A DNA stretch of 56,512 bases from Candidatus Hadarchaeota archaeon (GTDB lineage Archaea; Hadarchaeota; Hadarchaeia; Hadarchaeales; Hadarchaeaceae): positions 188,545 through 245,056 of the forward strand of contig CAZETV010000002.1 of NCBI GenBank assembly GCA_964514965.1, written 5' to 3'. This document shows, one piece after another, positions 716 to 51,056 of this stretch (its first letter is position 1; each line of letters starts with the position of its first letter). Both the position numbers and the translations under genes were made by a program. A model generated the notes under the pieces. That model saw nothing but the letters and a program-made list of their open reading frames with translations. It did no database searches and was not told the origin of the DNA.

Positions 716-900
716 GCCGAAAAACCGTTTATTCAAGTTCACGTAGAAGCCGAGATAGCCAAGGGGAAGTATCACGATTACGATACTTTTCTCGGTTGCG
801 AGGCGGACCAGCTCAAGGTTTTCGCTCAGGGGTTAGGGTTGAATCCTAGACAAGTTATAATGTCGGGGGCTTTCACCAAACCCCACCAGACTGTTATGTA
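716..900 (+). other. Stop-bounded coding-like segment without start codon. It is paralogous to the ORF at 50754..51056. Both lie immediately 3' of a minus-strand tRNA gene.
   Basis: In-frame translation ...EADQLKVFAQGLGLNPRQVIMSGAFTKPHQTVM* compares with DQLKVFAQGLGLNPDQIIMSGALAEPHRAIV in the 50754 ORF. The nucleotide match gaccagctcaaggttttcgctcagg vs gaccagctgaaagttttcgctcaagg is also visible. Confidence 0.45.
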
Positions 901-948
901 ATCGAGGAAATTAACATCCCCCAACGTAAACTTGATTCCATATATTAG

Positions 949-1023
949 TGGGGCCGCCGGAATTTGAATCCGGGTCACCAGCACCCCAAGCTGGGAGGCT
1001 AGACCAAGCTACCCCACGGCCCC
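949..1023 (-). tRNA. tRNA-Pro (anticodon GGG), no intron, CCA not encoded.
   Basis: Revcomp reads GGGGCCG-TG-GGGT-AGCTTGGTCTA-GCCT-C-CCAGC-TTGGGGT-GCTGG-TGAC-CCGGA-TTCAAAT-TCCGG-CGGCCCC-A. Acceptor, T-arm and anticodon stems all pair; the D-stem has two GU pairs. Anticodon loop is TTGGGGT. Confidence 0.75.
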
Positions 1024-1066
1024 TGAGGAATCTAGTTCCATCTACATAAAAACAAGTTGTCGAAGA

Positions 1067-2017
1067 TTATGTATTGATAATATTAACTATCTGTTTATTT
1101 GTCTCTTGCGGCGGCTCAATAGTATTAACCATATAAACATCCGTCAATTTGAAAAGCTTTTTGAAAAAATCCTTCCTGAGTTGCAGCTTTCGTTGGTCTC
1201 TTACCAATTGATGAGGGTTGCAAAAATCATTCGCCAGCAAATAATCCAGTGCCTCCTCAGGGCTGAGCTTTCTGATCACTTTTGGGTCATCTTTATCCCT
1301 CTTGAGCAGGATAATTTTTCTGAGTGTCGTCATCGGTATTACCCCACCACTACCTACTATCCACCTCACATTTACGACCGCCCTTCCACGCGAATCGAAA
1401 CGGGCTTTTTTCACGAGCCCCTCATATTCCTTCCATATGCTCCCGATATCTGCCTCGACATAGCAGTTCTTCTCCGAGCCGAAAGCAAGAGGGCCCTGCT
1501 CGTAAATTCTCACGAAATACCAGTCATCCGTCACCAGCCTCGCCCCTTCCAATCTCAACAGACCCCATGAGTGAGTCGTCTTGCCAGTTTTAGGTGGCGC
1601 TATGATGGAAACACCCGTTCCCTTCACGTCTATCGCTGCTCCGTGGACGGAGTATATCCCGTGTTCGTCTTCGAGAACATCACCCGCCACGGAAAGGGTG
1701 ATGCTCTTTATCCACCCATAGTAGTCGACATTGGTCAGGAACGCTGTATTCGTATAGGGGTCATACTTGACATCGAGCTGGTTCCCCTCCTCTCTCAAAA
1801 CGACGATGCGACCATGCGATCGGATGTTCTCGTCCATTGTGTAAAAGTTTTCATCCCATAGGTCTTTCACGTCCTCCAATTCTGTCAGGAGCTTTATGCA
1901 ACAACCGTAGATGTTCGCCTTCTTGGTATACAGGTACCGCTTTAAATTGAGCTCGAAGAGCCTCTGCTTCTCCTCGGGCATGATTAACTTTACCTCATAT
2001 TTCAAGGAACTCATCAA
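1067..2017 (-). CDS. HprK/P-like P-loop serine kinase homologue (N-domain plus C-terminal kinase core), adjacent to RuBisCO.
   Basis: VHGAAIDVKGTGVSIIAPPKTGKTTHSWGLLRLEGARLVTDDWYFV matches the HprK core pattern vHGvlvdv.G.GvLi.G.SG.GKSE.ALeL..rGh.LvaDD. The Walker A sits mid-protein as in HprK/PEPCK-fold kinases. Length 316 aa, similar to HprK. Confidence 0.5.
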   Translation of the reverse strand: MMSSLKYEVKLIMPEEKQRLFELNLKRYLYTKKANIYGCCIKLLTELEDVKDLWDENFYTMDENIRSHGRIVVLREEGNQLDVKYDPYTNTAFLTNVDYYGWIKSITLSVAGDVLEDEHGIYSVHGAAIDVKGTGVSIIAPPKTGKTTHSWGLLRLEGARLVTDDWYFVRIYEQGPLAFGSEKNCYVEADIGSIWKEYEGLVKKARFDSRGRAVVNVRWIVGSGGVIPMTTLRKIILLKRDKDDPKVIRKLSPEEALDYLLANDFCNPHQLVRDQRKLQLRKDFFKKLFKLTDVYMVNTIEPPQETNKQIVNIINT

Positions 2018-2024
2018 ATCACAT

Positions 2025-3320
2025 TTACTTGGGCCTGATATATCCCCACTTCTCTATGGCGGCCCTCAATTCTCCTCTTCCCTTGGCGTATTCTTCAAGC
2101 GGAACTTTCCTTAGCGTAGCATCGATGGCCTGACGCACAGCTGCTGCCCCCGCTCGTCCACCTAGCGGATGTCCCCAAACACCGCCCCCAACTTGGATGA
2201 TAATATCTGTTCCAAACATGCCGATGATCTCGGGTACCAAACCTGGGTGCAACCCGCCTGAGATGACGGGGAAAACAGGTCTGATCGCGCGCCACTCTTG
2301 AGCTAGAATTTGCCGTCCCCTTTTAACGTTACTATTCATGATTTCTCTTTGTAGCGCCAGAACCTCCTCCCGTGGCGCCTCAAGCTTCCCTATTGCGGTG
2401 CCGATGTGGAGCTGGTCAACGCCCACAAGGCGAGCTATTTTTGCAACGGCTAACATAGACATCCCATGCTCTGGCTTGCGCGTGAATGCGGCGTGGAACG
2501 CACGGTGAGCGTGGATCGCGAGCCCTAAATCTTCACAATCATCGCGCAGCGATTGAACTCCTGCCCACCCCGCCGTCAGGATATCTACCATCACATACTC
2601 CCCACCTTGCTCCTTTACGAATTTCGCGCGGCGGAGCATTTCTCGCGTCTCGGCGGTCACGTTAATCAAATAGCTCTTTCGTTCTCCAGTTTCGTGCTCG
2701 GCTCGGTCGCGCAGCTCAAGCGACTTAGTCACCCTGCGTTCGAATTGGTTGAATCGCTGCCCAGAGAGGTTCTCATCGTCCTTGAGCAGGTCAATGCCGC
2801 CTACCCAAGCTTCGTATCCCGCTCGAGCGTGCTCCTCGCTGCTCATCCCGACTTTGGGCTTTGGCACCGTTGCGGTCAGCGGCCCCTCTCTCCCCTTGAA
2901 TATCTTTCTGATGCCCTTGATACCAAACTGAGGACCCTTGAAAGATTTTATGAGCTCCGGAGGCCACCGCACGTCCTCGAGCCTGAGATTGCGCACGGCT
3001 TTCATCCCGAAGATGTTGCCCGCGATCGAGCTAAGCACTTGGGGCATGTTCCCCGCCTCGAAGAGGTCAAGCGGGTAGGCCACCTTCACCCACCGCCCTT
3101 TAATTTCGTAGGCCTTCGCCATGAGTCGTCGCTTTTCGGGCGTCATCGTCGTAAGGGTGGTCCAAGTGCCAATCGAGCTCTCCGAGGCCACGCGCCCCAC
3201 GGCTTCTCGCATGCTAATGCCGTTCGCAGGCTCAACTCTAAACAAAACGATCAAGTCCTCGCGGGCGGGCCTGTAGCTCGGGTCGACGAAATCTAAATAC
3301 CATTCGGTCTTCATGCTCAT
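2025..3320 (-). CDS. rbcL: Ribulose-1,5-bisphosphate carboxylase/oxygenase large subunit, archaeal form III.
   Basis: Motifs GIDLLKDDENL, LAIHAHRAFHAAFTR, GGGVWGHPLGGRAGAAAVRQA. 431 aa. No small-subunit gene nearby. Confidence 0.9.
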   Translation of the reverse strand: MSMKTEWYLDFVDPSYRPAREDLIVLFRVEPANGISMREAVGRVASESSIGTWTTLTTMTPEKRRLMAKAYEIKGRWVKVAYPLDLFEAGNMPQVLSSIAGNIFGMKAVRNLRLEDVRWPPELIKSFKGPQFGIKGIRKIFKGREGPLTATVPKPKVGMSSEEHARAGYEAWVGGIDLLKDDENLSGQRFNQFERRVTKSLELRDRAEHETGERKSYLINVTAETREMLRRAKFVKEQGGEYVMVDILTAGWAGVQSLRDDCEDLGLAIHAHRAFHAAFTRKPEHGMSMLAVAKIARLVGVDQLHIGTAIGKLEAPREEVLALQREIMNSNVKRGRQILAQEWRAIRPVFPVISGGLHPGLVPEIIGMFGTDIIIQVGGGVWGHPLGGRAGAAAVRQAIDATLRKVPLEEYAKGRGELRAAIEKWGYIRPK

Positions 3321-3561
3321 GAACCAATTAACAATAGCTTTTCAAGTAAAAATACACTTAGCGCTTGAATTTCGCTCTATCGTCTCAAATGGGCTGAGAT
3401 ACATTTGCGAATCCACATCCATTTTATCCAACCGTCAGATCCATTGTCTCTCCACTAGGTTAGGACTAAGCAATACCGCTTATTTCTTTTCTTTCTCTTC
3501 GGCGGTTCGTTTCGATTCACATTTCCCCATCTCACGTTTGGCTAAGCCGCCAACGACTGAA

Positions 3562-3798
3562 TCAAGCCAGCACCACGAATACCACGCTATCGCCGCGAAT
3601 GAAAAGCAAACCGTATCGCTTTCTCACTCGGTCCCCCTCAAGGCTCGTGGCATCGTCGAGCACCAAATTCATGTGCATATCGTAAGCGCGCAACTTGCCA
3701 CGGAGCCTAGCCGCCCCTTTTAGCCCAACGATCACCTCGTTGCTCGAAGCGCGACCCAGTATTTCAGACAGAAGGCTTTCGGGACGAACTTGCACCAT
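3562..3798 (-). CDS. Archaeal Sm-like (LSm) protein.
   Basis: Sm1/Sm2 pattern: VIVGLKGAARLRGKLRAYDMHMNLVLDDA ... RYGLLFIRGDSVVFV. 78 aa. Confidence 0.85.
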   Translation of the reverse strand: MVQVRPESLLSEILGRASSNEVIVGLKGAARLRGKLRAYDMHMNLVLDDATSLEGDRVRKRYGLLFIRGDSVVFVVLA

Positions 3799-4188
3799 CT
3801 ACCTACCCTCGCTCTTGCAGAGAATTTGTAGACTTTTCTGCAACTGCCCTCTCATCTGCACACGTATCTTCCGCTCGATGTGCATCCTCTCGCAGAGACT
3901 TTGAAGCCTTTTCTTCAACTGCTCCAGTTCATTGGTCCCTTCGCGGAGGTTTTCCAAGGTGGACTGGAGCTTGATCGCGAGGGATTGCTGCTCGTACAGG
4001 GGGCGTGAGTCCGGGAGCTCCCCGCGGTTTATCGATTCCTCGAGGTTGCTTGTGATTCGACTTATAAGCCCTTCCATCTCCTCGAGCTTCTTTGGGTCGA
4101 CCTTTACCGCCTCGAGCATCATCAAGGCTTTTCTCCATTGCTCAGCCCTTTTACTCATGCTATCTTCTCCACCAAACGAGCGAGCCAT
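3799..4188 (-). CDS. Coiled-coil hypothetical protein, likely co-transcribed with the Sm gene (stop/start abut).
   Basis: 129 aa, heptad-rich (LEEMEGLISRITSNLEESINRGELPD...LKKRLQSLCERMHIERKIRVQMRGQLQ). No recognisable family. Confidence 0.4.
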   Translation of the reverse strand: MARSFGGEDSMSKRAEQWRKALMMLEAVKVDPKKLEEMEGLISRITSNLEESINRGELPDSRPLYEQQSLAIKLQSTLENLREGTNELEQLKKRLQSLCERMHIERKIRVQMRGQLQKSLQILCKSEGR

Positions 4189-4273
4189 GGCACACTAAAA
4201 AGAGATTTCCTTCCAACAAATCTATCGAATTTCGACACGAAATTAATATAAAAGCTGCAATGTAGTCATTTTA

Positions 4274-5149
4274 GTGTCATCCATGGTGAGCGAGGTGTCT
4301 TCCAACATAGAAACCGTGCTGTCGAGCATCGAGTTCAAACACACTCTACACCTCTACAGCTCCGATGTGAACAAGTACTCGGTTCAGGCACCCTTCCTAG
4401 CGGCCGCAAAGAAGGGCGAAACCGTTGTATACGTCACCAACGAGAGCCCCGCAGCGATGATGAAGGAGTTTGAGGGACTCGGTATCAAACTTTCCGTCAT
4501 AAAGCCCGAAGAGTTAGGAAAATTACCAATCACCAATCGCGGTCTGAGAGTAGTCGTAGACGCTGGCTCGATCGACCCGAGCATGCTCCGAAGGCTGAGA
4601 AGTCGAACACGGGAAGCGATAGCTAAGTACATCGACCACTCCAAGCGGGAAAAATACTTGGCTGAGAGATGTAAAGACTGCCTCATCTTGTGCACTTACG
4701 ACATGGGCAAGCTCGGTCCCGATTTGGTCAAACAACTCGTCGCATCCCACGATAAGCTGGTGCTAACGACGAGCGATGCGACCATCCTAGCGGCGGAGTC
4801 GCTGGATCGGGCTGGGCTTGCGGCTGAATCGGTTCAGCGGTTTGTGAAGGATGAACTTGAGACCATAGTTCTGGCGCTCGTGCTCAGGGAGCCAATGTGC
4901 GGCACCGACATAATAAAAACAATCCACAGCAAGTTCAACGTACTTTTGAGCCCGGGCACGATATACCCTCTCTTGCACGACCTTGAGAAGAAGGGGCTAT
5001 TGAAATGCGAGTACGGCGTAAAGACTAAGACCTACAAGCCGATGGAAGGCGCCGAGGAAAAAATCCGCGCCATGCTTGAGGAGCACGTCAAAGCGAGCAG
5101 GTTCCTGAGCAAGTTTTTGCAGGTCACCAGCGCGAGCGAAAAGCGGTAA
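4274..5149 (+). CDS. Putative gvp regulator: degenerate KaiC/RecA-like (GvpD-like) domain fused to a C-terminal PadR-family winged HTH.
   Basis: N-terminal part GETVVYVTNESPAAMMKEFEGLGIKLSVIKPEE has a KaiC-like fold signature without an intact Walker A. C-terminal VLREPMCGTDIIKTIHSKFNVLLSPGTIYPLLHDLEKKGLLKCEYGVKTKTYKPMEGAEEKI is a PadR signature. Paralogue of 15819..16805. Confidence 0.6.
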   Translation: MSSMVSEVSSNIETVLSSIEFKHTLHLYSSDVNKYSVQAPFLAAAKKGETVVYVTNESPAAMMKEFEGLGIKLSVIKPEELGKLPITNRGLRVVVDAGSIDPSMLRRLRSRTREAIAKYIDHSKREKYLAERCKDCLILCTYDMGKLGPDLVKQLVASHDKLVLTTSDATILAAESLDRAGLAAESVQRFVKDELETIVLALVLREPMCGTDIIKTIHSKFNVLLSPGTIYPLLHDLEKKGLLKCEYGVKTKTYKPMEGAEEKIRAMLEEHVKASRFLSKFLQVTSASEKR

Positions 5150-5229
5150 CGGTTTTAGCGTTCAAATTTCGAAACACAAACTTATTAGGGATTTTTTCAG
5201 CGGACTTTATGTGGTGGGGGTGATTTCAG

Positions 5230-5436
5230 ATGCTCGGAAGGCGATCAATTATGGGGATTGTTTCCTCCGCGGATTACGATAAACTTCAAAATATGTGTGC
5301 TCGAGAGGGATGTCGCATCTCAGATATAGTCGGCAGAATCGTTTCCCAGTACTTGGCCAGAGTCCCCGCGGAAAAAGTTGTGAAAGTAAAGAAAATAAAA
5401 AGGATTAAAAAGGCCAAGAAACGGGCCCCCAAGTAA
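5230..5436 (+). CDS. Small ribbon-helix-helix (CopG-like) DNA-binding protein with a Lys-rich tail.
   Basis: RRSIMGIVSSADYDKLQNMCAREGCRISDIVGRIVSQYL is an RHH beta-alpha-alpha pattern. 68 aa. Lies between the PadR-fusion gene and the gvpF operon. Confidence 0.45.
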   Translation: MLGRRSIMGIVSSADYDKLQNMCAREGCRISDIVGRIVSQYLARVPAEKVVKVKKIKRIKKAKKRAPK

Positions 5437-5461
5437 AATCCGCTCAAAACGAGGTGAACCC

Positions 5462-5527
5462 ATGGGAAAATTGAAGGAGTGGTTTCGTAAGAAATCGAAG
5501 CGTAAGGCAAAGAAAAAGGGAAAATGA
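5462..5527 (+). CDS. Possible 21-aa highly basic micro-protein (MGKLKEWFRKKSKRKAKKKGK).
   Basis: Strong SD (gaggtga) 7 nt upstream of ATG. Not in the ORF track because it is under 60 aa. Confidence 0.25.
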   Translation: MGKLKEWFRKKSKRKAKKKGK

Positions 5528-5620
5528 TTCAGGGTTGATGGCTCATCTTTTTGCTTCTCAATTACCACCTTCGAAATCAGCTAGAATTCAGGCCCATTTT
5601 AATGTCGGATTTCTTTTGCG

Positions 5621-6970
5621 ATGGGTTGTATGTTTTCGAAGCTCGACACAAAACGTTTAAATCCCGCATATATCGAAATTCGATACGAGATTAGATACAA
5701 GGTGAAGTGTGTGGAGGTAAAACCACTTAGTAATATCATAGCTATCGGAAAGACGACGCGGGGGGGCAGACCATTCCCTGTCAGAAGGCATCGGGGCCTG
5801 TACTTTTTCATCCCGGTTGAGCAGTTCGACTGGTTAAGGGAAGTAAATGATGCTTACAAGACCCTCTACCGAATGGAGGGGGGGGTAGAGCCGCTTCAGA
5901 AGATAAAGATAGTTGGGAGAGGAGGCGTTGAGGGATACAAGCCATTCTTGCTCAGGGGGCACTACGGACGGTATTTGTGCATCCTCGCCGAGCATCTTAG
6001 ACAGCTCAAGCAGATCAACCGCGCGTATGCGGAACTACTTGAAGCTAAAGGGCTGGAGAAAGAGCGCAAGAGGAGGTTAGAAGAGAAGGAACGAGCGAGC
6101 AAAATTGTAGAAAGCGTGAAAGCGGCGGTAGAGGACGCCCGAAAGATAGGAGCACCCGAACATGGGGCCGAACTCATGCGGCCCGTCGACGAATCCCTTG
6201 CCGAAATCGAGGCTGCGTTCATCGCCGAGGAATACAACAAGACCATTGAGCTGGCATCAAAAGTGGATGAACTGGTCCGAGAAGCTAGGGCAAAAGCGCT
6301 CAAGAAAATCGAGGAAACGAAAAAGATCGAAGCGGTGAAAAGACCTCCAGAAGAGGGGAGGTACGTTTACTGCATCATCCCTTGGGAGGGGAGCCACAGC
6401 AGGCTTAGCTTTGGAGACTTGGGTGTAGAGGGCAACGGCGAGGTGTACGCCATACCCTTTGGAGACATCGCAGCGGTCGTGAGCAACGCCCCCTTCAAGG
6501 AATACGTGCTCACCGAGGACAACATACGCACCCATAACCAAGTCATAACGCGCGTGATGCAGGAGTACCCTGTCGTGCCAATGGCTTTCGGCATGGCGTT
6601 CAAAAATGAGGGGGTGCTCAAAGGGTTGCTCGGGAGGATGCGCGATGATTTGAAAAATGCCCTAAATGAAGTCAAGAGCAAGGTCGAACTCGGCGTCAAG
6701 GTGATCTTGCCGGAGGGGACCGAGTTCGACGAGAACGCATTTGCATCTGAGATCAAGGCGCTTCACGAGCTGGCGACCCAATGCAAGCTCGGCAAGCGGT
6801 TCAGCAAGCGTTTGATCTTGAACGCGTTTTATCTAGTAGCGAAAGAAAAAGTGGAAGATTTCCTAGGCGCGGCTAAAGCGCTGGAGGAGAAGTTCAAACA
6901 GCTGAGTATACAGTGCACTGGTCCATGGCCCCCGTTCAACTTCGCAACAATAAAAGTTGGAGGTAGGTGA
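5621..6970 (+). CDS. gvpF: GvpF/GvpL-family gas vesicle protein with a ~240-aa N-terminal extension (two copies of a ~45-aa domain plus a coiled coil).
   Basis: C-terminal 205 aa (GRYVYCIIPWEG...GDIAAVVSNAPFKEY...VVPMAFGMAFKNEG...TGPWPPFNF) is canonical GvpF/L. The N-term contains IIAIGKTTRGGRPFPVRRHRGLYFFIPVEQFDWLREVNDAYKTL and KIKIVGRGGVEGYKPFLLRGHYGRYLCILAEHLRQLKQINRAYAEL, the same duplicated domain as in ORF 9969..10274. Confidence 0.8.
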   Translation: MGCMFSKLDTKRLNPAYIEIRYEIRYKVKCVEVKPLSNIIAIGKTTRGGRPFPVRRHRGLYFFIPVEQFDWLREVNDAYKTLYRMEGGVEPLQKIKIVGRGGVEGYKPFLLRGHYGRYLCILAEHLRQLKQINRAYAELLEAKGLEKERKRRLEEKERASKIVESVKAAVEDARKIGAPEHGAELMRPVDESLAEIEAAFIAEEYNKTIELASKVDELVREARAKALKKIEETKKIEAVKRPPEEGRYVYCIIPWEGSHSRLSFGDLGVEGNGEVYAIPFGDIAAVVSNAPFKEYVLTEDNIRTHNQVITRVMQEYPVVPMAFGMAFKNEGVLKGLLGRMRDDLKNALNEVKSKVELGVKVILPEGTEFDENAFASEIKALHELATQCKLGKRFSKRLILNAFYLVAKEKVEDFLGAAKALEEKFKQLSIQCTGPWPPFNFATIKVGGR

Positions 6971-7265
6971 GGTGCCCTTCCTAGTCGATGACATAGTTCT
7001 CCGAATGCTCGGGATTTCGATCCCGCCCTTCGACATGATCTGGTTGCTGGAGACCATACGGGACTTCGCCGTTCGGGAAGTCTATGATCCTGAAAAGATA
7101 AGCGACTCGATAAAGGAAAACCGGATGCTCTACGAACTCGGGGAGATCACGAAGGAGGAGTATGAGCGGGTCAATACAGAGCTCCTCGAGGCGCTCGAGA
7201 TAGCAAAGCGTGCTAGGGAGACGAAGATCGAGCACCGCATCGATATTTTGGGAATTGGTGGGTAG
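6957..7265 (+). CDS. gvpG: GvpG-like gas vesicle protein.
   Basis: FLVDDIVLRMLG...YDPEKISDSIKENRMLYELGEITKEEYERVNTELLEALE matches the GvpG pattern as remembered. Position between gvpF and gvpH. Overlaps the gvpF stop. Confidence 0.6.
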   Translation: MEVGEVPFLVDDIVLRMLGISIPPFDMIWLLETIRDFAVREVYDPEKISDSIKENRMLYELGEITKEEYERVNTELLEALEIAKRARETKIEHRIDILGIGG

Positions 7266-7266
7266 G

Positions 7267-7791
7267 ATGAAAAGGCACCCTATGCAACTATGCAGGCTCC
7301 TCTTTGGCAACATATTTCACGACCTAGAAAAGCTGGCGAGGACAGTAGATGCGCTCGCCAAAGAGGGAGAGGTCCGGAAGGGGTACAAAGAGGGCCCCTT
7401 CATCGTCGAGTACCGGCGGACCGTTCGCTACATCCGCCCTGAGTCCACCGCTCCAGCCCCCGAAGCACCGCGAATCGAAATCAAGCCGAAACCAATCGAG
7501 GCCGAGGCCAAGCCTAGGGAATCGCTAGTGGACGTTTTCGACATGGGAGATCATATCTTGGTCATGGTCGGGCTCCCCGGTGTGAAGGAGGAAGATATCG
7601 AGTTCGAGACCGTGGGCAGCGCGCTCAAGATCAAGATTCACACACCCGGTGGCGATGTCGAGGGCGATATCTCGATTGCGGGAGTTGAACAGGTTAAAGA
7701 AATCATGGGTGCCTCTTTCAAGAACGGCACCCTCGAAATCAAACTGAAAAAAATAAGGGAGGTGAAGAGATGGGAACCAGCACAGCGATAG
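7267..7791 (+). CDS. gvpH: GvpH-like Hsp20/alpha-crystallin-domain protein.
   Basis: ESLVDVFDMGDHILVMVGLPGVKEEDIEFETVGSALKIKIH...GTLEIKLKK is an Hsp20 ACD. ATG at 7267 directly follows the gvpG stop. The track ORF starts at 7210 on an upstream alternative start. Confidence 0.75.
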   Translation: MKRHPMQLCRLLFGNIFHDLEKLARTVDALAKEGEVRKGYKEGPFIVEYRRTVRYIRPESTAPAPEAPRIEIKPKPIEAEAKPRESLVDVFDMGDHILVMVGLPGVKEEDIEFETVGSALKIKIHTPGGDVEGDISIAGVEQVKEIMGASFKNGTLEIKLKKIREVKRWEPAQR

Positions 7792-8174
7792 GGGTCGGGG
7801 GGCTGAGGAGGCGCAGGCGAAAGGCCATGATATCTAAAACAGTTGCGCGGAGCAAGCTGAGCAGGGACAGATCGAGAGTCAAGCTGCTGCACGCGAGGGA
7901 GCGGTACAAGATGAAGGTGTGGAAGCACGAGCGCGGGATGGCAGCCAGAAAGGCGGAGCAACCAAGCAAGCTTGGTCCGCTTGCGGTATCGTTCATGCCT
8001 TCGAAAGAGTCCGCCAAGCGATCCAGGCTGGTGCAGCCCCGCTGGTCGGCCGTGCCCAGCAAGCCCAAGTATTCCGATGTGAAGCCGAAGGAGAGGCTCT
8101 ACGGGCTGAGGTTCGAGGCGCGCGAGAAGCGACTCGCAAAGCAGGAGTCCGAGGAGAAAAAGCCCAAGGAATAG
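7770..8174 (+). CDS. gvpI: Basic Arg/Lys-rich protein in the gvpI position.
   Basis: 134 aa, very basic (RRRRRK, KAEQPSK, KPKYSDVKPKE...), as GvpI is described. Synteny between gvpH and gvpJ. Confidence 0.45.
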   Translation: MGTSTAIGVGGLRRRRRKAMISKTVARSKLSRDRSRVKLLHARERYKMKVWKHERGMAARKAEQPSKLGPLAVSFMPSKESAKRSRLVQPRWSAVPSKPKYSDVKPKERLYGLRFEAREKRLAKQESEEKKPKE

Positions 8175-8184
8175 GTAGGTGTGG

Positions 8185-8544
8185 ATGATGGTAGCTATCG
8201 CCCCGACAAGGGAGGGCCCGAGCGACTTAGCTCAAACAATCGAGAAGATTCTCGACAAGGGACTCGTGCTAGACGCCGACATCGCGGTTTCGGTCGCCGG
8301 TACCGAGTTGCTGGGCATAAAGATTCGCGCCGCACTCGCCTCTTTCGAAACCGCCGCGAAATATGGTCTCGAGTTTCCGAGCGGCGTCAACCTCAATGCC
8401 CCTGCATGGAAAGAGATAAACGTGAAAAAGGCGAAGTGCCCGGGCTGTGGAAACGAGTGTCCGGAGGAGGAGCTGCTCAAGCGGGGTTGTCCAATCTGTG
8501 GCTGGATGAGCCCGCTGAAGCCAAGACAGGCCCCGATCCCCTAG
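8185..8544 (+). CDS. gvpJ: GvpA-family (GvpJ-position) protein with a C-terminal CxxC...CxxC zinc ribbon.
   Basis: LAQTIEKILDKGLVLDADIAVSVAGTELLGIKIRAALASFETA is the GvpA/J/M core. C-terminal CPGCGNECPEEELLKRGCPICGW. Confidence 0.75.
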   Translation: MMVAIAPTREGPSDLAQTIEKILDKGLVLDADIAVSVAGTELLGIKIRAALASFETAAKYGLEFPSGVNLNAPAWKEINVKKAKCPGCGNECPEEELLKRGCPICGWMSPLKPRQAPIP

Positions 8545-8553
8545 GTGGTAAAC

Positions 8554-41655: not shown

Positions 41656-41681
41656 CGTTTAAAACGATTCAGTACCAGCTC

Positions 41682-42390: not shown

Positions 42391-42423
42391 GGTGGGCCCG
42401 AAGGGATTTAACCCGCCAACCAC
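42391..42423. repeat. Degenerate direct copy of the tRNA-Met 3' half (T-arm plus acceptor). att-like remnant 8.6 kb from the intact gene.
   Basis: gggcccgaagggatttaacccgccaaccacgaac vs gggcccgaagggattcgaacccttgaccactcgg at 51031. About 26/30 identical, same orientation. Confidence 0.55.
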
Positions 42424-43049: not shown

Positions 43050-43165
43050 AGTTTCTTACCTCCCCACGATTTGTCCAAATATTCTATGATTTCTAATCCT
43101 AAATTTTTTGGGGTTAATCCCTTGGCGAGGAACTACTTTATAACCTGACGAAGAAACCATGAGAA

Positions 43166-43831
43166 CTAGACTGGAAGTCTTAACACTACGATCTTTTGTT
43201 CCTTAGGTAAACTGTCTTTCGTGACGCTAAGGCCCGGACCATTGGTTTTCTCAACGGTTTTCTTACCTTTTAGAAATGCATCGAGGGCGATAGGCATCAC
43301 CCTTGACAACCACGGCGATGCACCTGAGAACCCTGTGTTGTAATGCATCGGTATAATTATTTTCGGGTCCAATTTGGTGATAACCGACCATGCGACATCG
43401 GGCCCTATGGTGGCTCCTCCCGCAACTGGTGTGCACAGCACGTCTACCTTGCCTATCTCCTTTGCCTGCTCCGCGGTCAGGTCGTGACCTAGGTCTCCCA
43501 AATGACACAGTTTGAGGCCGTCAAGCTGTACAGTGTAGACGCTGTTCTTCCCTCTTTGGCTGCCCCCAGCGTCGTCGTGTAGGGTCGCCACGCCCTTCAC
43601 TGGAATGCCTCCAACGTCCTTTGCGCCCACGAATCCTTCTAGGGCATCTCCTCCTTCTTTGAGGACCGGTTTTACGTTGTTGTGGTCCCTGTGGCCGTGG
43701 CTGCACAGGACGACGTCAGCTTTTGCCTTTGGCTCAGGTAAGCCGATCCCTCCGAAGGGGTCAAACACGATTGTAGCATTCTGTCCCCTCACCTCAAAGC
43801 ACGCGTGCCCATGCCATAGAATATTCACCAA
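43166..43831 (-). CDS. Metallo-beta-lactamase-fold hydrolase (UPF0173-like).
   Basis: NILWHGHACFEV...VLCSHGHRDH. Confidence 0.7.
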   Translation of the reverse strand: MVNILWHGHACFEVRGQNATIVFDPFGGIGLPEPKAKADVVLCSHGHRDHNNVKPVLKEGGDALEGFVGAKDVGGIPVKGVATLHDDAGGSQRGKNSVYTVQLDGLKLCHLGDLGHDLTAEQAKEIGKVDVLCTPVAGGATIGPDVAWSVITKLDPKIIIPMHYNTGFSGASPWLSRVMPIALDAFLKGKKTVEKTNGPGLSVTKDSLPKEQKIVVLRLPV

Positions 43832-43977
43832 AATACCCGCCCCCTTTCTAAATGCACCGAGTTTTAATAGTTGAACAAAGCCTTAACTTTTTCGCTCTCC
43901 TGGAGTTTGATGGCATGCTGAATTCTCCGCTTTAGACTCCACCTCCCAAACCATTGAATGGGAGGTGTGGAAAAAGC

Positions 43978-44277
43978 ATGACCACATACGTGGGTTTGGA
44001 TGTGCATCTGCGCACGTGCCACGCGACGGTGATGGACGAACACGGAAGAATCCTGAAGCAGGAGAAATTCCCGAACGAGCGTCCGGAGTTCGAGAGGGTC
44101 CTCAAGGGCATCGACGATGCGAAGGTCGCGATGGAAGCGTGCTACTGCTGGCAGCCCGTTCACGAGCTGCTCGAAACCTTTCTCGTAACCAGATTGCCTA
44201 TTGCGGCATTCAATATTCCTATTGTCGTCGTAGTTTTCATTTTTCATCAGGCCTCTTCCTTTGATATAACTCGGTGA
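43978..44277 (+). pseudogene. IS110-family transposase N-terminal fragment (truncated).
   Basis: MTTYVGLDVHLRTCHATVMDEHGRIL...AKVAMEACYCWQPVHELLE is the DEDD N-domain only. The 3' part is overwritten by the convergent radical-SAM gene. Confidence 0.55.
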
Positions 44278-45625
44278 CAAGGTAGTGCATCGCTTTTCTA
44301 AATATGAACCCTTTATCCTTTATCAAGTCCTTTGCTAGTGTTTTTGGACGAAGGTAAAATTTCAGGTAAGCCAATTTCAAAGCGTTTGCTATCTGAGACG
44401 CCGTGAGGTATTTTAATTTCATTACAGGGTCCAATGTTGTGAATTTTTTCCAGTTCGTTGTGAGAAGTAATTTTTCTTTCAAAGCATATGACCATAATTT
44501 CGTCCCCGGATAAGGAGTGGCTATGGTAAATTGGGCGAAATCAACTCCTACTTTTTTCGAAAAATTTATTGTTTTATTAACATCTTCCCCATTTTCCTCG
44601 GGAAAGCCTATCACAAAAGACCCCAGCGCATGCAGTCCAGCTTCCTTCGCGTTTTTCACGGCCAATCCCGATTTTTCCAGCGTGATCCCTTTCCCAATGA
44701 AATCGAGTGTTTTTTGGGAGCCTGATTCCAGGCCAAAGTATACGGTGTGGGCTCCTCCTTTTTTCATCGTGTTTGCAATTTCCGCAGAGAACGTGTCCAC
44801 TCTTGAAGACGCGGTCCAAGAAATATCCAATCCCTCTTCCCTTATTTTCTTGGCTATTGCGATCACCCTAGGTTTCAATAAGGTGAATGTATCATCCATA
44901 AATTCCACGTCGGTTTTACCGTATTCATGCCTGAGTATGGATAGTTCTTCCATGGTTCTCTCCACGCTGTGCCCACGCCATTTCTTCCCGAATTGCAGGG
45001 ATGAGGAGCAGAATATACAGTTGAATGGGCAACCCCTGCTAGTAATTATTGTCGCAAATTCAACTTTGCCCGACTTGTATTTTTTCATGGGAAGTAATTC
45101 ATAAGATGGAATTGGAATTGTATCGATGTTTTCTATCAGCTTTCTTGGCGGGTTATTTATTATTTTTCCGTTCTTTTTAAAAGTCAACCCATTTATCTTT
45201 TTAAAATCCGCTCCATTTCCGAGGGCATAGACCAGTTCTTTAAATGTGTCTTCCCCTTCCCCTCTCACGATAAAGTCTACATACGGGCATTCCTGCATGA
45301 TCCTCTCTGGTACAAAAGTTGCGTGTGGCCCTCCTAAAATAATATTAATGTTTTCATTTATCCCTTTAGCGATCTTTGCTATTTCGTATGCATCTGGCAT
45401 CATCGAAGTTGTCGCCGTTAAACCAACTATGTCAGGGTCTGAATCTCTTATTATCTTGGCCACATCTTCCCTTCCGTATCCTTCCGCAATTGAATCGATG
45501 ATTTTCACGTCATGTTCATCTTTTACCATTGAAGCAAGATATGCTAAGCCAAGAGGGGGCATGGTTTCGCCCATAACTCTTCTTACGGCGCTTTCTGTTG
45601 GGGGAGAAACCAGCATCACGTTCAT
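44237..45625 (-). CDS. B12-binding domain radical SAM enzyme (class B rSAM).
   Basis: N-terminal cobalamin-binding domain (PLGLAYLASMV...DIVGLTATTS), then SRGCPFNCIFCSS. Confidence 0.8.
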   Translation of the reverse strand: MNVMLVSPPTESAVRRVMGETMPPLGLAYLASMVKDEHDVKIIDSIAEGYGREDVAKIIRDSDPDIVGLTATTSMMPDAYEIAKIAKGINENINIILGGPHATFVPERIMQECPYVDFIVRGEGEDTFKELVYALGNGADFKKINGLTFKKNGKIINNPPRKLIENIDTIPIPSYELLPMKKYKSGKVEFATIITSRGCPFNCIFCSSSLQFGKKWRGHSVERTMEELSILRHEYGKTDVEFMDDTFTLLKPRVIAIAKKIREEGLDISWTASSRVDTFSAEIANTMKKGGAHTVYFGLESGSQKTLDFIGKGITLEKSGLAVKNAKEAGLHALGSFVIGFPEENGEDVNKTINFSKKVGVDFAQFTIATPYPGTKLWSYALKEKLLLTTNWKKFTTLDPVMKLKYLTASQIANALKLAYLKFYLRPKTLAKDLIKDKGFIFRKAMHYLVTELYQRKRPDEK

Positions 45626-45665
45626 GTTATCTCACTTTTTCTGGGTGGCCGGTCATATACCGGTG

Positions 45666-47189
45666 TTAGGCAGCCATCCGCGGTGGAACTTGGGATCTTG
45701 ATCTAGCCTGCTCGAGCTCCTGCCAGTAATGGATGTTGTGGATGCAACCCGGGTCGGGCGCCTGTACGTCCCCATAGTAGCCGTAGGCACGTGCCCTGCA
45801 CCCGCCGCATATGTACTTGTGTTCGCATTGGCCGCAGTTCTCCAGGGCATCGCGGTTCCTGAGCTTCCAGAGGAGCTCCGTGGAGTCCCAGATATCGCGC
45901 AGCCTGTCCTTCCTTATGTTGCCGAGCTTGATGGGCATGAAGACGCAGGGGGTTATGTCGCCGTTAGGTTCGAGCCCGCAGTACAGCCTTCCGGCCCCGC
46001 ACCCCCCTAGGAACTCCGCGAGGCTCTTTGTCCGCCCCTGTAGCGCACTCATGGCAGCGCGGTTCGTGAAGTGCGTGGCCACCACCCCGACCGCATCGTT
46101 GCCCAGAGCGTACTCCCAGGAGACGGTGGAGTACTGGGGCGCAGTCGAATAGCATATCATCTTGCAGTTGCTGTCCATCATCCTGTTGTAAAGGTACTTG
46201 AGGAGCTCCTGCCTGTCCTCCGGGCTTAGGTCCTGTTCGGTGATTTCCTTTCCCCTCCCCGTCGGCACGTAGTTGAATACTATCACGCGTCCAACTCCGA
46301 GCTCCTTCTCGGCGAAGTCAACCAGCTTCGGAATCTCGTGAAGGTTATAACGAGTTGCGGTGAGGGCAACGCAGGTGTCAATCCCTTCGGCAACGCAGTT
46401 CTTGATTCCCTCGCATGTGCGCTTCCAGGCCCCGGGCACCCCCCTGAACTTGTCGTGGGCCGCCTCGAATCCATCGAGGGAGATTTCAGCGTAGCCGAAA
46501 ACATCCTTCATCTTCTTGGCCATATCCCGCGTGATCAGCGTTCCATTGGTAGCGACTGAGGTGTAGAACCCCCTGCTTTTCGCGTATCCGGCGACTTCAA
46601 AGATGTCCTTCCTCGTTAACGGCTCTCCCCCTGAAAAGGCGATGGCAACCACGCTGGCATCTTCGAACTCGTCGATTACGTGCTTGGCCTCCTCGGTTGT
46701 GAGTTCGTCCTCCATCGCCTTCGGTCCTGCATTCTCATAGCAATGCTCGCACCGCAGGTTGCATAACTTTGTATAGTTCCAAACGACCAGGAAGGGCGCC
46801 ACGGAGATGAAGGGCCTTCGAGTGCCGTAACGCGCGATGCCCTCCAGCACGTTGACCATGGCGCGCCTTATCATCGGGTCCGACATGTTTTCCTTCAGAT
46901 TGGAGTCAGAATAACCGAAGGCGTTTGCCCCGTGATCAAGCACGAATTTAACGATTAGTGAGGCGAGAGCGTCCTGCACGTCGCATTTAATTTCCTCGCC
47001 GGTATATTTACGAAGAGCAATATCGAGCCTGTTGCCTCCCCCCCTGCTTCGGCCACAGACTAATCTTAGCATGGCCCTTGAGACTGGGTTATCGAGCCAA
47101 CGCTGGACATGGCCAATTACCGCATCCTCAGTCCTAACCTCAGCTCCCACCTTGATGCTTTTGTTGGAGGCCATTCTATCCACCCCCAA
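45666..47189 (-). CDS. Radical SAM enzyme with C-terminal SPASM domain and ~130-aa N-terminal extension.
   Basis: CNLRCEHCY core; SPASM cysteines CGQCEHKYICGGCRARAY. Confidence 0.8.
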   Translation of the reverse strand: MGVDRMASNKSIKVGAEVRTEDAVIGHVQRWLDNPVSRAMLRLVCGRSRGGGNRLDIALRKYTGEEIKCDVQDALASLIVKFVLDHGANAFGYSDSNLKENMSDPMIRRAMVNVLEGIARYGTRRPFISVAPFLVVWNYTKLCNLRCEHCYENAGPKAMEDELTTEEAKHVIDEFEDASVVAIAFSGGEPLTRKDIFEVAGYAKSRGFYTSVATNGTLITRDMAKKMKDVFGYAEISLDGFEAAHDKFRGVPGAWKRTCEGIKNCVAEGIDTCVALTATRYNLHEIPKLVDFAEKELGVGRVIVFNYVPTGRGKEITEQDLSPEDRQELLKYLYNRMMDSNCKMICYSTAPQYSTVSWEYALGNDAVGVVATHFTNRAAMSALQGRTKSLAEFLGGCGAGRLYCGLEPNGDITPCVFMPIKLGNIRKDRLRDIWDSTELLWKLRNRDALENCGQCEHKYICGGCRARAYGYYGDVQAPDPGCIHNIHYWQELEQARSRSQVPPRMAA

Positions 47190-47793
47190 AAGTAGAAGTG
47201 ATCTTTGACCAATCCGCAGCCCATCGGATCTGGTTGCCGTACTTGTCCATGAGCAGCAAATGCCTGGCCGGGAAGGGGAGTTCGTCCAAGTTCGTTATCA
47301 ACGGCGTTGGGGGGTTCCTGGCGATGCTGTCGCCATTGCGATAGCATATGCCGGTTACTGTGGCTAGGCCGCCGCCGCTTTCGAGTGCTTTCGTCAGATT
47401 GAGCATAGTTCTTTCCCCTTCGCCGACGCAAACCGCATCCAGCTGGGGACACCCTTTCAGGGTTTCGGTCGGGAGGAACGTGGGGTGTGCGCCGCCCATT
47501 ACAGTAAAGGCGTCCGGGCAGGACTCCTTGGCTATACCCATGGCGGCCATCGCGCCGTAGATTGTCGGCGTTACGGCCGTTGTGCCCACGATGTCCGGAT
47601 TCTCCTTTCCCAGTCGCGCTTTCAATTCCGCGGGCCCGATGCACGTCGCTGGGACGTCTATTATCCCGACCTCGTGCCCAGCCCCCTCGAGAACCGCAGC
47701 TATGTACGCCAGTCCCATCGGAGGCATCAGGATCTTGAGGTACTCCTGAACTTCCATCCCCGGCGAAGCGGGGTTGATTAATATTACCTTCAT
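47176..47793 (-). CDS. Standalone B12-binding domain protein (possibly the truncated 5' half of a class B rSAM gene).
   Basis: KVILINPASPGMEV...PPMGLAYIAAVLEGAGHEVGIIDV...DIVGTTAVT...FPARHLLLMDKY, then the ORF ends just where the CxxxCxxC would be expected. Overlaps the next rSAM by 14 nt. Confidence 0.55.
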   Translation of the reverse strand: MKVILINPASPGMEVQEYLKILMPPMGLAYIAAVLEGAGHEVGIIDVPATCIGPAELKARLGKENPDIVGTTAVTPTIYGAMAAMGIAKESCPDAFTVMGGAHPTFLPTETLKGCPQLDAVCVGEGERTMLNLTKALESGGGLATVTGICYRNGDSIARNPPTPLITNLDELPFPARHLLLMDKYGNQIRWAADWSKITSTFGGG

Positions 47794-47883
47794 TTTGCCA
47801 TCCCCTCAGGGCTCGGCGGTTTTCGCCCGCCCGGGTTCGGGGGCCATATGAGTACCGCCTTTATGCTCGATGCGCCCTCCGTT

Positions 47884-48336
47884 TCATCCCCTAGGCCGGG
47901 ACATCTCTTCCCGGAGCTTCTCAAGGAGATTGCGTAGTGTCCTCCGTTCGTCTGTCGTGAACGCTCGAAAGACGTTCCGCATGTACTCGCTGTACCTCGT
48001 AGCTACAATTTCTTGCACGGCTTTCCCCTTGGGGGTGAGCTCTATGATGGTGGCCCTCCTGTCTCCCCGTCGCGCCATCCTCTTTAGGAGCCCCTTGGAC
48101 TCGAGCCTGTCGATTATCCCGGTGATGTTGGCCGGAGTCACGAGCATTTCATCGCTTATCCCCTTCATCGGCGTCGCGCCATTTTTGGCAACTATCCTCA
48201 ACACCCGGAACTGCGGCTGAGTCAGCCCTTCCTTTAAAAGCATTTCTGTGATGCTGCATTGCATCACCTTGTACGTCGCTATGACGGCGTTGTATGTCTC
48301 GTTGGGATGTCCCGCTGGTCCTTCTCCTTTGGGCAT
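47884..48336 (-). CDS. MarR-family transcriptional regulator.
   Basis: LTQPQFRVLRIVAKNGATPMKGISDEMLVTPANITGIIDRLESKGLLKRMARRGDRRATIIELTPKG. Start placed at the internal Met (TATA-like box about 25 nt upstream, probably leaderless). Confidence 0.75.
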   Translation of the reverse strand: MPKGEGPAGHPNETYNAVIATYKVMQCSITEMLLKEGLTQPQFRVLRIVAKNGATPMKGISDEMLVTPANITGIIDRLESKGLLKRMARRGDRRATIIELTPKGKAVQEIVATRYSEYMRNVFRAFTTDERRTLRNLLEKLREEMSRPRG

Positions 48337-48895
48337 GTTGTAAAATAAGTTAGTCAAAGTATAAATAGTTAAGTCATTAACTGTTTCTTTGGTTATACCT
48401 TGAACGCAAGCAGCATAGGCTCTGAAATGGTCCCCTTCAGAGGCACACGAGAACCCACAAAGGCCCGTTTTTCCGGGCCTGAAACGAGCGAGCCAAGGCC
48501 CGCAATCGCAGTGATACACGAGGTATGGGGAGTTAGTAAACCACACAAAGGACGTAACGAACAGATTCGCGAGGGAGGGATACGTGGCGCTCGCTCCCAA
48601 CTTCTCCTCGTGTCCAGAGCTGGCCTCGCTGCTCACACCTCAGAATATTGGCATCACGATGGGTTTCGTTCAGACACTGCCTGCCGAGAGGAGGGCGGAC
48701 ATGGTTTATGCACGGCAAGAGTCTGCAAAGCAACCGGCCGGGACGAGAGATGTGGCACAGAGGATGATGAGTAAGATGTTTGGAGGAATGCAGAAGGACG
48801 CTCCCACAAAAGAAGCGGTGAAAGTAGTGGACGTGTTATATCGCGGTTAGGAGCTTGCGCGCTTTAGCCCCTGCTCGAACTCGAGGTGCAAAAGA

Positions 48896-50716
48896 ATGGT
48901 CGAATACAAGTGGGTCGCCCTCTCCAACACCACCCTGGGCGTGCTGATGGCCACGATAAACGGATCGATAACCCTGATCTCTCTGCCAGCGATATTTCGC
49001 GGGATTAACATCGACCCCCTCACATCTTTTCAGTACCTGTTGTGGATTCTCTTCGGCTACAGTATCGTCACGGCCTCCTTGCTCGTCATGTTCGGACGGA
49101 TATCCGACATGTACGGGAGGGTGAAGCTGTACAACATGGGGTTCTTAATCTTCACGGCAGGTTCCATACTCCTGTACTTTACTCCAAGCGGCGGAGACCT
49201 CGGAGCATTAGAAATAATCTTCTTCAGGATAGTGCAAGGACTGGGCGCCGCCTTCCTCTTTGCCAACAGCGCGGCAATTATCACCGATGCCTTCCCCTTC
49301 AACGAACGTGGTAAAGCCTTGGGCATAAACCAAGTAGCAGCAATGATCGGCTCCATCGCGGGGCTCATCCTGGGCGGAATCCTGGCGGCCTTCGACTGGC
49401 GTTACGTCTTTCTCGTCAGCGTGCCCGTTGGTATTTTCGGGACAATCTGGTCGTACCGGAAGCTCAGGGAGCTCGCTGCGATACGGAAGAACCAAAAGCT
49501 CGACCTCTTGGGCAACGCCCTGTGGGGTACGGGTCTCACCGTGATCCTGCTGGGGGTGACGTACGGGTTGATCCCGTACGGAGGCTCAACCATGGGCTGG
49601 GGCAACCCCTGGGTAATCACCGCGCTCATATTCGGCGTTGCGCTGCTGGTGGCGTTTCCCTTCGTAGAGGCCAGGGTAAAGGATCCGATGTTTAGGCTGG
49701 GGCTGTTCAGGAACAGGATGTTCAGCGCCGCAAATTTCGCCGGGATGCTTGCAGCCATCGGCAGAGGAGGGGTCATGATCATGCTGATAATACTGCTACA
49801 GGGAATATGGCTCCCGCTCCACGGATACAGCTATGAATCGACGCCCTTCTGGTCCGGCATATACATGCTGCCCCTGTTGGCTGGTTTTGTTGTCATGGGA
49901 CCGCTGAGCGGCTGGCTCTCGGACAGATACGGTGCCCGGGGCCTCTCCACGCTTGGGATGCTGATCACGGCGGTCACCTTTTTCGCGCTCGCGGCCCTTC
50001 CTTACAACTTCGACTATTTGCCCTTCGGCGTGATCCTCTTCGTGCAGGGTATCGGGGGTGGGATGTTTGCGTCTCCAAACACGGCATCGATCATGAACTC
50101 CGTTCCCGGAGAACACCGCGGCGCCGCTTCGGGGATGAGGGCGACACTCCAGAACACAGCGACGACGGTGAGCCAGGCGCTGTTCTTCACCATCGTGATT
50201 TTCACCCTCGCCAACAACCTGCCCAGCGCCTTCTCGGCCGCCTTCACGAGTGCCGGCGTGCCCCAGCTCGGTTCGGTCTTCGCCCAGACTCCGCCGACCG
50301 GGGCTCTCTTCGCTGCCTTCCTCGGCTACAACCCTGTCGGCAGCATCGTCTCGCAGCTCTTGCTCAACCAGAGCACGGCCTCGTTGGTGTCGTCTATTCC
50401 GCCGCAGACCCTGAGCTACCTGACGGGCAACACTTTCTTCCCGACCGCGATCGCCCCTCCGTTTATGGGCGCACTGAGTTTCGCCTTCTACGTCGGCCTT
50501 GGCCTCTCCGTTGCGGCCGCGGTCTCGTCCCTTTTCCGTGGCAGGGTTTACATATACAAAAAGGAGGTGACTGTCGCCCCCAAGCCTCCCGTCCTTCCGC
50601 CGATAACGGGGCAGGAAAGCGATGCTCAAAACCTGAGCGGCAAAGGAGATATGCGAAAGGCCCCCCGTGGCGCGATTGGATTAGAACCTTCGCCGCGCAA
50701 GGAGGGGGATGACTAA
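48896..50716 (+). CDS. MFS transporter, 14-TMS DHA2/EmrB-like efflux pump.
   Basis: [11 protein letters not shown], multiple hydrophobic spans, 606 aa. Confidence 0.85.
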
Positions 50717-50753
50717 TTGAGTCAACAAGTCTACAATTATTACTCTAGACGGA

Positions 50754-51056
50754 TTGAGGAGCGTTTACGCCAACGCGAACATGAACATCAGGCAACGGCC
50801 CGCAATCTCCAAGATAGACCAGCTGAAAGTTTTCGCTCAAGGCCTGGGGTTGAATCCCGATCAGATCATCATGTCCGGCGCATTGGCAGAACCACACAGG
50901 GCCATAGTGACTCCGGGCGACTTGGAGGCTTGGCAGGTACAAACCCTATCCTCGGCTCTGAAGGAAACCCTCAAAAACGAGATTATTTCCGAGCTATCGT
51001 TTGGGTCCAAAGGTATATGGTTAGAGGAATGGGCCCGAAGGGATTCGAACCCTTGA
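50754..51056 (+). CDS. Hypothetical ORF running into the 3' end of tRNA-Met. Paralogous to the segment at 716..900. Candidate N-terminal fragment of a tRNA-targeting, SSV-type partitioned integrase, or a decayed gene.
   Basis: IDQLKVFAQGLGLNPDQIIMSGALAEPHRAIV shared with 716..900. The last 26 nt of the ORF are tRNA-Met sequence. Confidence 0.3.
   Translation: MRSVYANANMNIRQRPAISKIDQLKVFAQGLGLNPDQIIMSGALAEPHRAIVTPGDLEAWQVQTLSSALKETLKNEIISELSFGSKGIWLEEWARRDSNP

Follow-up and report, generated by a model that had tools for sequence, protein, structure and literature searches.

The 56,512-nt stretch of contig CAZETV010000002.1 from a Candidatus Hadarchaeota archaeon analysed here (the window) carries two minus-strand tRNA genes, tRNA-Pro(GGG) and tRNA(CAU), each followed directly on its 3' side by a plus-strand coding segment, copy A and copy B respectively. 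We propose that these segments, together with a third one (copy C), are decayed remains of the integrase genes of mobile elements that had used the tRNA genes as attachment (att) sites. The features concerned are the following.

about 580-901, plus strand: copy A, putative integrase pseudogene adjoining tRNA-Pro (tblastn, translations)
948-1023, minus strand: tRNA-Pro(GGG), intact (ARAGORN; Rfam RF00005, 52.2 bits)
42266-42392, plus strand: copy C, third putative integrase-tail relic (local alignment of 42266-42423 with 50902-51060, translation)
50717-51056, plus strand: copy B, putative integrase-tail relic (tblastn, list of open reading frames)
51030-51125, minus strand: tRNA(CAU), either Met or Ile2, intact, with a 22-nt non-canonical intron in the anticodon stem (Rfam, 56.7 bits)

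The initial annotation had pointed out copies A and B as paralogous segments lying just 3' of the minus-strand tRNA genes, and both the kinship and the placement hold. Positions 806-895 and 50817-50906 encode a common 30-codon peptide, DQLKVFAQGLGLNP..AEPH, with 22 of 30 amino acids identical and 69% nucleotide identity over 90 nt; the 60 nt flanking the match on each side are at random identity (30-33%). Its degenerate 26-nt core, GACCAGCTSAARGTTTTCGCTCARGG, is found exactly twice, at 806-831 and 50817-50842, with no occurrence expected from shuffles. Twelve codons carry synonymous differences only and 18 of the 28 nucleotide differences fall in third positions (8/2/18 by codon position), suggesting that A and B diverged as working genes in different elements; by this pattern the pair would be diverged coding sequence and not a recent duplication.

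Pfam and PHROG scans of both fragments alone gave no usable match. When full-length relatives (see below) were compared with the window by tblastn, matches were obtained at the sites of copies A and B only, and the fragments align to the full-length integrases at E values of 1e-15 to 1e-23; by the same search, two other tRNA genes in the window have no integrase-like segment. Copy A retains residues ~208-285 of the integrase, comprising the box I Arg and the beta-hairpin Lys region ('LSALGGSRIGTL..KYRHVKRDL*..VHVEAEIAKGKYHDYDTFLGCEA'), joined at about 805/806 to tail residues ~411-441 ('DQLKVFAQGLGLNPRQVIMSGAFTKPHQTVM*'). Against the integrase of the related locus L012, residues 216-285 correspond to 629-829 (E 3e-15) and residues 411-441 to 797-889, while residues 208-221 correspond to 606-647 in a frame different from the rest. 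The 5' ~200 codons are gone, the frame shifts near 640 and meets an in-frame TAA at 713-715, an internal deletion of ~125 codons removed the HxxR motif, the His and the Tyr, and the 3' tail is shortened. There is no usable start codon, and the frame closes at 899-901, 47 nt short of tRNA-Pro; copy A is otherwise collinear with its counterpart in L040 (protein P0158), which reads into tRNA-Pro. The string 'LGGSRIGTLTKYRHV' in copy A was considered as the catalytic-Tyr motif and ruled out, the full-length alignment placing the box I Arg region there.

Copy B consists of the last ~110 codons only, from residue ~390, and no catalytic residue remains. Homology begins at about 50739-50745, straight after the stop codon of an MFS transporter gene; residues 390-471 (of 473) of the L012 integrase match 50745-50990 (E 3e-21), and residues 392-491 of the L008 integrase match 50745-51053. 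The open reading frame (ORF) at 50754-51056 encodes 100 aa from a TTG or 91 aa from an ATG, the 91-aa product being the one called at NCBI (P0001), and enters the tRNA 3' end, as noted before, with an overlap of 27 nt. Copy C, which was not part of the pair first noticed, comprises the last ~40 codons ('..AYKESMKREIVKELSIGSENDEIFLPGQ') and abuts a duplicate of the tRNA(CAU) 3' end at 42393, through which it aligns with the end of copy B. The catalytic set R-K-H-R-H/W-Y is incomplete in all copies of the window: A keeps the R and the K region, and B and C begin past the Tyr. Judged by these lesions, copies A, B and C are pseudogene fragments.

The integrase family and its association with tRNA genes

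A word-indexed protein search with the fragment retrieved only itself and one metagenomic fragment, P0002, whose upstream frame reads YVEYMMGHTIDTYHD; a search with that stretch led to more fragments, one of them with a PF00589 match. A search seeded with a full-length member returned more than 1300 relatives, most of them full-length (mostly 440-530 aa) and annotated generically as integrase or XerD. Scanning one genome per species for MGHTIDTY identified 32 loci in Bathyarchaeia and Hadesarchaea, in most of which the match closes an open frame of 455-543 codons, occupying its final ~110, and an exhaustive profile search with the segment gave 555 cluster representatives, with a C-terminal match in every full-length one (380-507 aa).

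The family consists of tyrosine recombinases of ~455-540 aa from Bathyarchaeia and Hadarchaeota. Full-length proteins score 31-40 bits with PF00589, above its cut-off of 27.1, and have matches among the PHROG integrase families; an AlphaFold 2 (AF2) model with a pLDDT (predicted local distance difference test) of 86.5 has structural matches to XerA, IntI, Cre and lambda Int, and R228, K261, H350, R353, H376 and Y381 are invariant in 111 sequences. The peptide shared by copies A and B sits in a ~95-aa extension that follows the catalytic Tyr and forms 4-5 confident helices in the AF2 model; a tail-only fold search in the PDB gave no structural match. The best structural and profile match is to XerA and XerC/D-like recombinases (PDB 5HXY and 4A8E; NF040815) over the core-binding and catalytic domains, whereas the family possesses two additional parts, a ~90-aa N-terminal beta/alpha domain and the C-terminal extension, and its context is that of mobile elements and not of a single housekeeping dif recombinase. 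The XerA equivalog NF040815 is matched at 49-66 bits (cut-off 220) and PF16795 (Archaeal phage integrase, SSV type) at 13-23 bits (cut-off 27), both below threshold. Among virus and plasmid records, a significant match was obtained only with ORF29 of Methanothermobacter virus psiM100, a very distant and itself uncharacterised putative integrase (25% identity over residues 149-468, reaching into the tail region).

Intact, catalytically complete genes (~455-540 aa) adjoin or cross tRNA genes in six genomes (L009, L010, L011, L018, L021 and L022). A converging tRNA gene follows the integrase gene after 14 nt in L018 (tRNA-Pro(GGG)), 18 nt in L021 (tRNA-Arg(TCT)) and 38 nt in L022 (tRNA-Asn(GTT)); in the Hadesarchaea L009, L010 and L011 the integrase ORF runs antisense into an intron-containing tRNA gene, crossing the whole of it in L009 and L010. 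Taking relics and intact genes together, the overlap of ORF and tRNA measures from 21 to over 100 nt in the window, L006, L040 and L009-L011, and the stop codon precedes the tRNA in L018, L021 and L022. Fragments P0004, P0005, P0008 and P0158 terminate in translated tRNA 3' ends. A link between the L012 integrase gene and a tRNA 870 nt downstream was considered and rejected.

The tRNA-Pro(GGG) gene is a recurrent integration site across related Bathyarchaeia: its orthologues carry the same kind of remnant in L002-L006, L040 and L045, and a full-length integrase gene in L018. The relics at orthologous tRNA-Pro(GGG) genes start at different residues, ~205 in L040 (P0158), ~296 in L045, ~307 in L002-L006 and ~360 in L001. 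Those of L001 and L040 are 92% identical in nucleotides, and their differences (8/6/8 by codon position; 2 synonymous, 10 non-synonymous) are as expected for what would be neutral decay. In the window, tRNA-Pro(GGG) has a single relic, copy A, and the distal end of the element is outside the window. The tRNA-Pro 3' end (TGGGGCCGCC...), which faces copy A, is presumed to be the att site of the element behind copy A; no duplicate of it exists in the 947 nt available to its left.

Two of the tRNA-Pro relics are parts of chimeric ORFs that gene callers report as proteins. The relic in L040 (4618-5838, P0158) is fused in frame to an HsdR_N (type I restriction enzyme) N-terminus, and that in L045 (410-1372) is likewise fused in frame, behind a fragment with an ATP-dependent-ligase-like KLDGTRA motif, read by eye.

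Several small genes accompany the full-length integrase genes. In 22 of the 32 loci a small ORF (85-170 aa) on the same strand directly precedes the integrase gene (among L008-L036, for example, L018 958-1320, L021 1802-2176 and L010 2718-2975); it has no Pfam or PHROG match, its core reads '..YVRYxDHVxF....REAxGW......SGLVxLKsxIxE..', and it is a candidate accessory or directionality factor. No relic of this partner or of other element genes was found in the window. Three further small conserved neighbours are a Cys-rich ~80-aa protein, a ribbon-helix-helix-like protein and a 'MGKTVxxYRMALE' protein. In the Bathyarchaeota genome of L037, a DUF3800-X RNA (7747-7819; Rfam RF02984, 65.5 bits) is located ~1.2 kb upstream of an integrase frame of the family.

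A proposed composite island at tRNA(CAU)

L045, nearest to the window among the relatives found (RuBisCO 85% at the amino acid level), was the sole locus located by a metagenome scan with the pattern DQLKVFAQ. In L045 only 46 nt separate tRNA-Glu (7047-7125) from tRNA-Met (7172-7249); the orthologous pair in the window is 10.1 kb apart. The 13-mer TGGGCCCGAAGGG, the antisense of the tRNA(CAU) 3' end, occurs three times on the plus strand, at 41029, 42393 and 51030, with none expected. The sequence leading up to the copy at 41029 (..TGG) is the ancestral flank, shared with the empty site of L045, and the middle copy extends into a degenerate tRNA-like arm (about 26/31 nt). Integrase tails lie immediately 5' of both proximal-side copies, copy C at 42393 and copy B at 51030. 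The three att copies and the contrast of 46 nt with 10.1 kb indicate that 41029-51042 represents two tandem degraded integrated elements, here termed E1 and E2. The resulting layout, flank-att-E1-(tail C)-att-E2-(tail B)-att/tRNA, is what is classically left when two elements integrate in tandem and then decay; E1 would be the older one, and crossover would have taken place in the 13-16-nt core. The parts of the island and its left landmark are listed below.

40788-40898, minus strand: intron-containing tRNA gene, orthologue of the L045 tRNA-Glu(UUC), left landmark of the insertion site (Rfam, 42.9 bits)
41029-41041, plus strand: distal att copy, 13-nt exact duplicate of the tRNA(CAU) 3' end (13-mer search, L045 alignment)
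41042-42392: E1, putative remnant of the first (outer) element, 1.35 kb, ending in copy C
41389-41655, minus strand: ParE toxin (E1)
41682-41990, minus strand: Phd/YefM antitoxin (E1)
42393-42423, plus strand: middle att copy, 16 nt identical to the tRNA(CAU) 3' end (alignment)
42424-51029: E2, putative remnant of the second (inner) element, 8.6 kb, ending in copy B (Pfam scans, as for the genes of E2 below)
42765-43049, minus strand: Alba (E2)
43166-43831, minus strand: MBL-fold hydrolase (E2)
44237-45625, minus strand: B12-radical SAM protein, B12-binding (E2)
45666-47189, minus strand: radical SAM/SPASM protein (E2)
47176-47793, minus strand: B12-binding protein (E2)
47884-48636, minus strand: MarR regulator (E2)
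48896-50716, plus strand: MFS transporter (E2)
51030-51042/45, plus strand for the 13-mer: proximal att copy, the tRNA(CAU) 3' end itself (13-mer search)

The E2 segment is absent between tRNA-Glu and tRNA-Met of L045. A second copy of the tRNA-Met 3' half was not detected with 20-29-nt patterns allowing up to 3 mismatches; the repeats surfaced through the L045 comparison and the exact 13-mer search. The tRNA gene at 40788 was considered as a duplicate of tRNA-Met and rejected. Since ARAGORN anticodon calls for 51030-51125 are inconsistent, the anticodon CAU was set by alignment with the orthologues in L006, L002 and L045, the last of which is an intron-less tRNA-Met(CAT).

E1 contains two RHS/YD-like fragments with a common 55-nt direct repeat of 95% identity (41308-41362 and 42063-42117, 'NMAYFYDYDG(R/M)LVRVEN'). 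The toxin-antitoxin pair is bracketed by these RHS/YD-like ORF fragments (41269-42326), and it looks as if the ParE/Phd module lies inside, or between pieces of, an RHS-type gene. In E2, the region 43864-50716 has a GC content of 0.57-0.58, above that of the neighbouring DNA. The radical-SAM/B12/MarR/MFS block may have arrived with the element as a cassette for peptide modification and export.

Origin of the segments

Taken together, these data make it likely, with a probability of roughly 85%, that the segments are non-functional relics of integrase-gene 3' ends, derived from mobile elements that integrated at tRNA 3' ends. It is proposed that related elements, each encoding a ~455-540-aa tyrosine integrase of the family specific to Bathyarchaeia and Hadarchaeota, inserted at the 3' ends of tRNA genes by site-specific recombination, which these integrases would have catalysed. 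On the tRNA side each element would have ended in its integrase gene, oriented antisense and pointing at the tRNA gene or reaching into it. Later deletions would have removed most of each element, leaving only the sequence against the tRNA, presumably because deletions reaching the tRNA were counter-selected. Two tandem integrations would have occurred at tRNA(CAU), and a single relic would remain at tRNA-Pro(GGG). The ParE/Phd pair of E1 and the small ORF before the integrase genes of relatives are regarded as mobile-element companions and are counted in favour of the relic reading.

In archaeal integrases of type I (SSV) attP lies inside the integrase ORF, and after integration the gene exists as two inactive parts, int(N) and int(C); in type II (pNOB8), which is lambda-like, the gene stays whole (PMC7253208, after She et al. 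2004). In the present family a whole enzyme is encoded on the tRNA side, which indicates that the family behaves as type II. An intact integrase gene on the border and flanking direct repeats of the tRNA 3' end place the module, by its arrangement, in the pNOB8-type or lambda-like class. Shared features are the whole tyrosine recombinase beside a tRNA-derived att site, the direct repeats of the tRNA 3' end, the serial att copies from tandem integrations and the decayed integrase stumps left as scars. The family differs from pNOB8 and lambda in that it has no close relative among plasmid or virus records, in its larger size (~455-540 aa), in the ~95-aa helical extension after the Tyr that lacks a PDB match, in the overlap of the last ORF codons with the att core, and in a tRNA link confined to part of the family.

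Some observations weigh against the relic reading. Full-length relatives do not adjoin a tRNA gene in 26 of the 32 genome loci, nor in L041, L042 and L044; because most full-length members lie away from tRNA genes, tRNA targeting would belong to part of the family only, a part that includes the clade closest to the copies in the window. No distal att copy was found at L018, L021, L022 or L009-L011 within the DNA available, and no free circular element or attP was recovered; a circularity test of short contigs was negative. The IMG/VR scan gave no relative, PLSDB plasmids searched by tblastn gave two weak bacterial matches only, and in the consulted papers on Bathyarchaeia viruses and metagenome-assembled genomes integrases are named only generically. 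The integrase role of the family is deduced from sequence and a structural model. The cargo of E1 and E2 includes genes that look cellular (Alba, MFS, radical SAM). Large blocks of housekeeping genes also distinguish the window from L045, so a break in synteny by itself is no proof of an element; one such block at 21-39 kb, missing from L045, was considered as an element at tRNA-Leu and rejected on account of its housekeeping genes.

The overlap of ORF and att core allows a somewhat different arrangement. An attP reconstructed from the att arms would lengthen the integrase ORF by about 5-30 codons; the predicted circular junction (P-arm, core and P'-arm) is ..GGTTAGAGGAA-TGGGCCCGAAGGG-ATTTAACCCGCC... 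It is unlikely, though conceivable, that this represents a third archaeal arrangement between types I and II, in which attP lies inside the extreme 3' end of the integrase gene and the residues after the tail are exchanged at each integration. A tail swap of this kind, perhaps together with the small upstream ORFan as a directionality factor, would modulate the activity or directionality of the integrase, and the tail stumps beside tRNA genes would supply material from which target specificities could be re-assorted, an idea already put forward for suicidal integrases. The reading frame of the codons past the att core varies among members, all three frames being used, which implies that the residues there are not a conserved part of the protein.

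We give little credence to the idea that the tail was domesticated, the ORF at 50754-51056 and its counterparts being small helical proteins that are expressed and kept beside tRNA genes for a cellular function. Copy B is indeed open over 91-100 aa and called as a gene at NCBI, short tail-bearing ORFs are numerous in metagenomes, and the tail models as confident helices. However, copy A has a stop, deletions and no start codon, copy C is reduced to 40 codons, and the relics of related genomes are cut at four different points; the single close pair tested, L001/L040, evolves neutrally. The ORFs moreover end in different frames inside the tRNA, and many of the short database matches are merely cut by short contigs. 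The alternative description in the initial annotation, a family of decayed small genes, is right about the decay, but the pieces come from one large gene family.

The initial annotation favoured a fragment of an SSV-type integrase. Its derivation from an integrase, the past integration at tRNA 3' ends and the antisense geometry stand; the identification as an SSV-type N-terminus does not. That the segments are int(N) stumps of type I, 'suicidal' integrases, with int(C) at the far end of the element, is highly improbable, and in its strict form the model is already refuted. The orientation fits, as the ORF runs antisense into the tRNA 3' end, and the integrase ORF crosses the att core in several relatives and in the reconstructed attP; elements of the SSV type (SSV1, pTN3, pT26-2) are likewise archaeal, use the tRNA 3' end as att with the integrase frame antisense to the tRNA and overlapping att, and leave integrase pseudogene stumps beside tRNA genes as integration fossils. 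Yet the fragment is the C-terminal tail (residues ~390-471 of 473), PF16795 stays under its cut-off, and complete catalytic genes beside tRNA genes argue against a split on integration. The search for int(C) proposed earlier was run within the window and gave no such sequence anywhere in it, including after the att copies at 41029 and 42393. The position of att also differs: close to the 5' part of the gene in the SSV type, it is found here at the extreme 3' end, where only unconserved terminal residues, read in the three frames, would be exchanged. A search for further tRNA-adjacent copies, also suggested at that stage, was productive, with copy C and the duplicates of the tRNA 3' end at 41029 and 42393 in the window and the intact integrase genes beside tRNA genes in the six genomes.

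The fixed side on which both copies lie would also fit a conserved cellular sequence on the 3' side of tRNA genes with no connection to mobile elements, such as a signal for processing or termination or a small cellular gene family, but this is the least credible explanation, given conservation at the protein level with synonymous changes, the presence of the sequence within a recombinase ORF in hundreds of genomes, and its absence from the orthologous tRNA-Met of L045, L006 and L002 and from the two other tRNA genes of the window.

If the segments are relics of integrated elements, three 'hypothetical' stretches become dated landmarks in the window, and a composite island of ~10 kb, made up of two tandem degraded elements, is delimited at tRNA(CAU). 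Beyond the window, a large integrase family (>1300 sequences) with a C-terminal helical extension and a conserved unannotated partner gene emerges in two uncultured archaeal lineages, and it could serve to find and delimit integrated elements in genomes of Bathyarchaeia and Hadarchaeota, two groups whose mobile elements are little known. Stumps of integrase genes beside tRNA genes, a classic signature and an ordinary genomic scar, leave current concepts unchanged; the family itself is unstudied.

Other observations in the window

Gene order in the window also differs from that of relatives. L045 and L006 have RuBisCO directly beside the RpoN-S9-L13-L18e block, and in the window the two are 16.5 kb apart (3320-19892). 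From L18e to tRNA-Leu(TAG) the distance is 0.9 kb in L045 and 18 kb in the window (21283-39480); the latter region contains housekeeping genes (CTP synthase, GlnA, GOGAT, TrpE, HisF, GuaA and NrpR), which points to a rearrangement and not to an element.

The tRNA genes also differ in their introns. tRNA-Pro is intron-less in the window and has an intron of ~17 nt in L045 (1351-1445), while the introns of tRNA(CAU) and tRNA-Glu are present in the window and absent from L045. ARAGORN miscalls among these tRNAs were Arg, Leu and '???'.

A tandem repeat with a period of 120 nt (2.7 copies, 83% matches) occupies positions 1-323; it seems to belong to a minus-strand ORF for a repeat protein, which leaves the window and ends in a hydrophobic, Thr/Val-rich region at ~320-480. 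At 52276-52441 the intron mode of ARAGORN proposes a tRNA-Ile(AAT) with a 76-nt intron, which does not reach the Rfam gathering threshold and is probably spurious.

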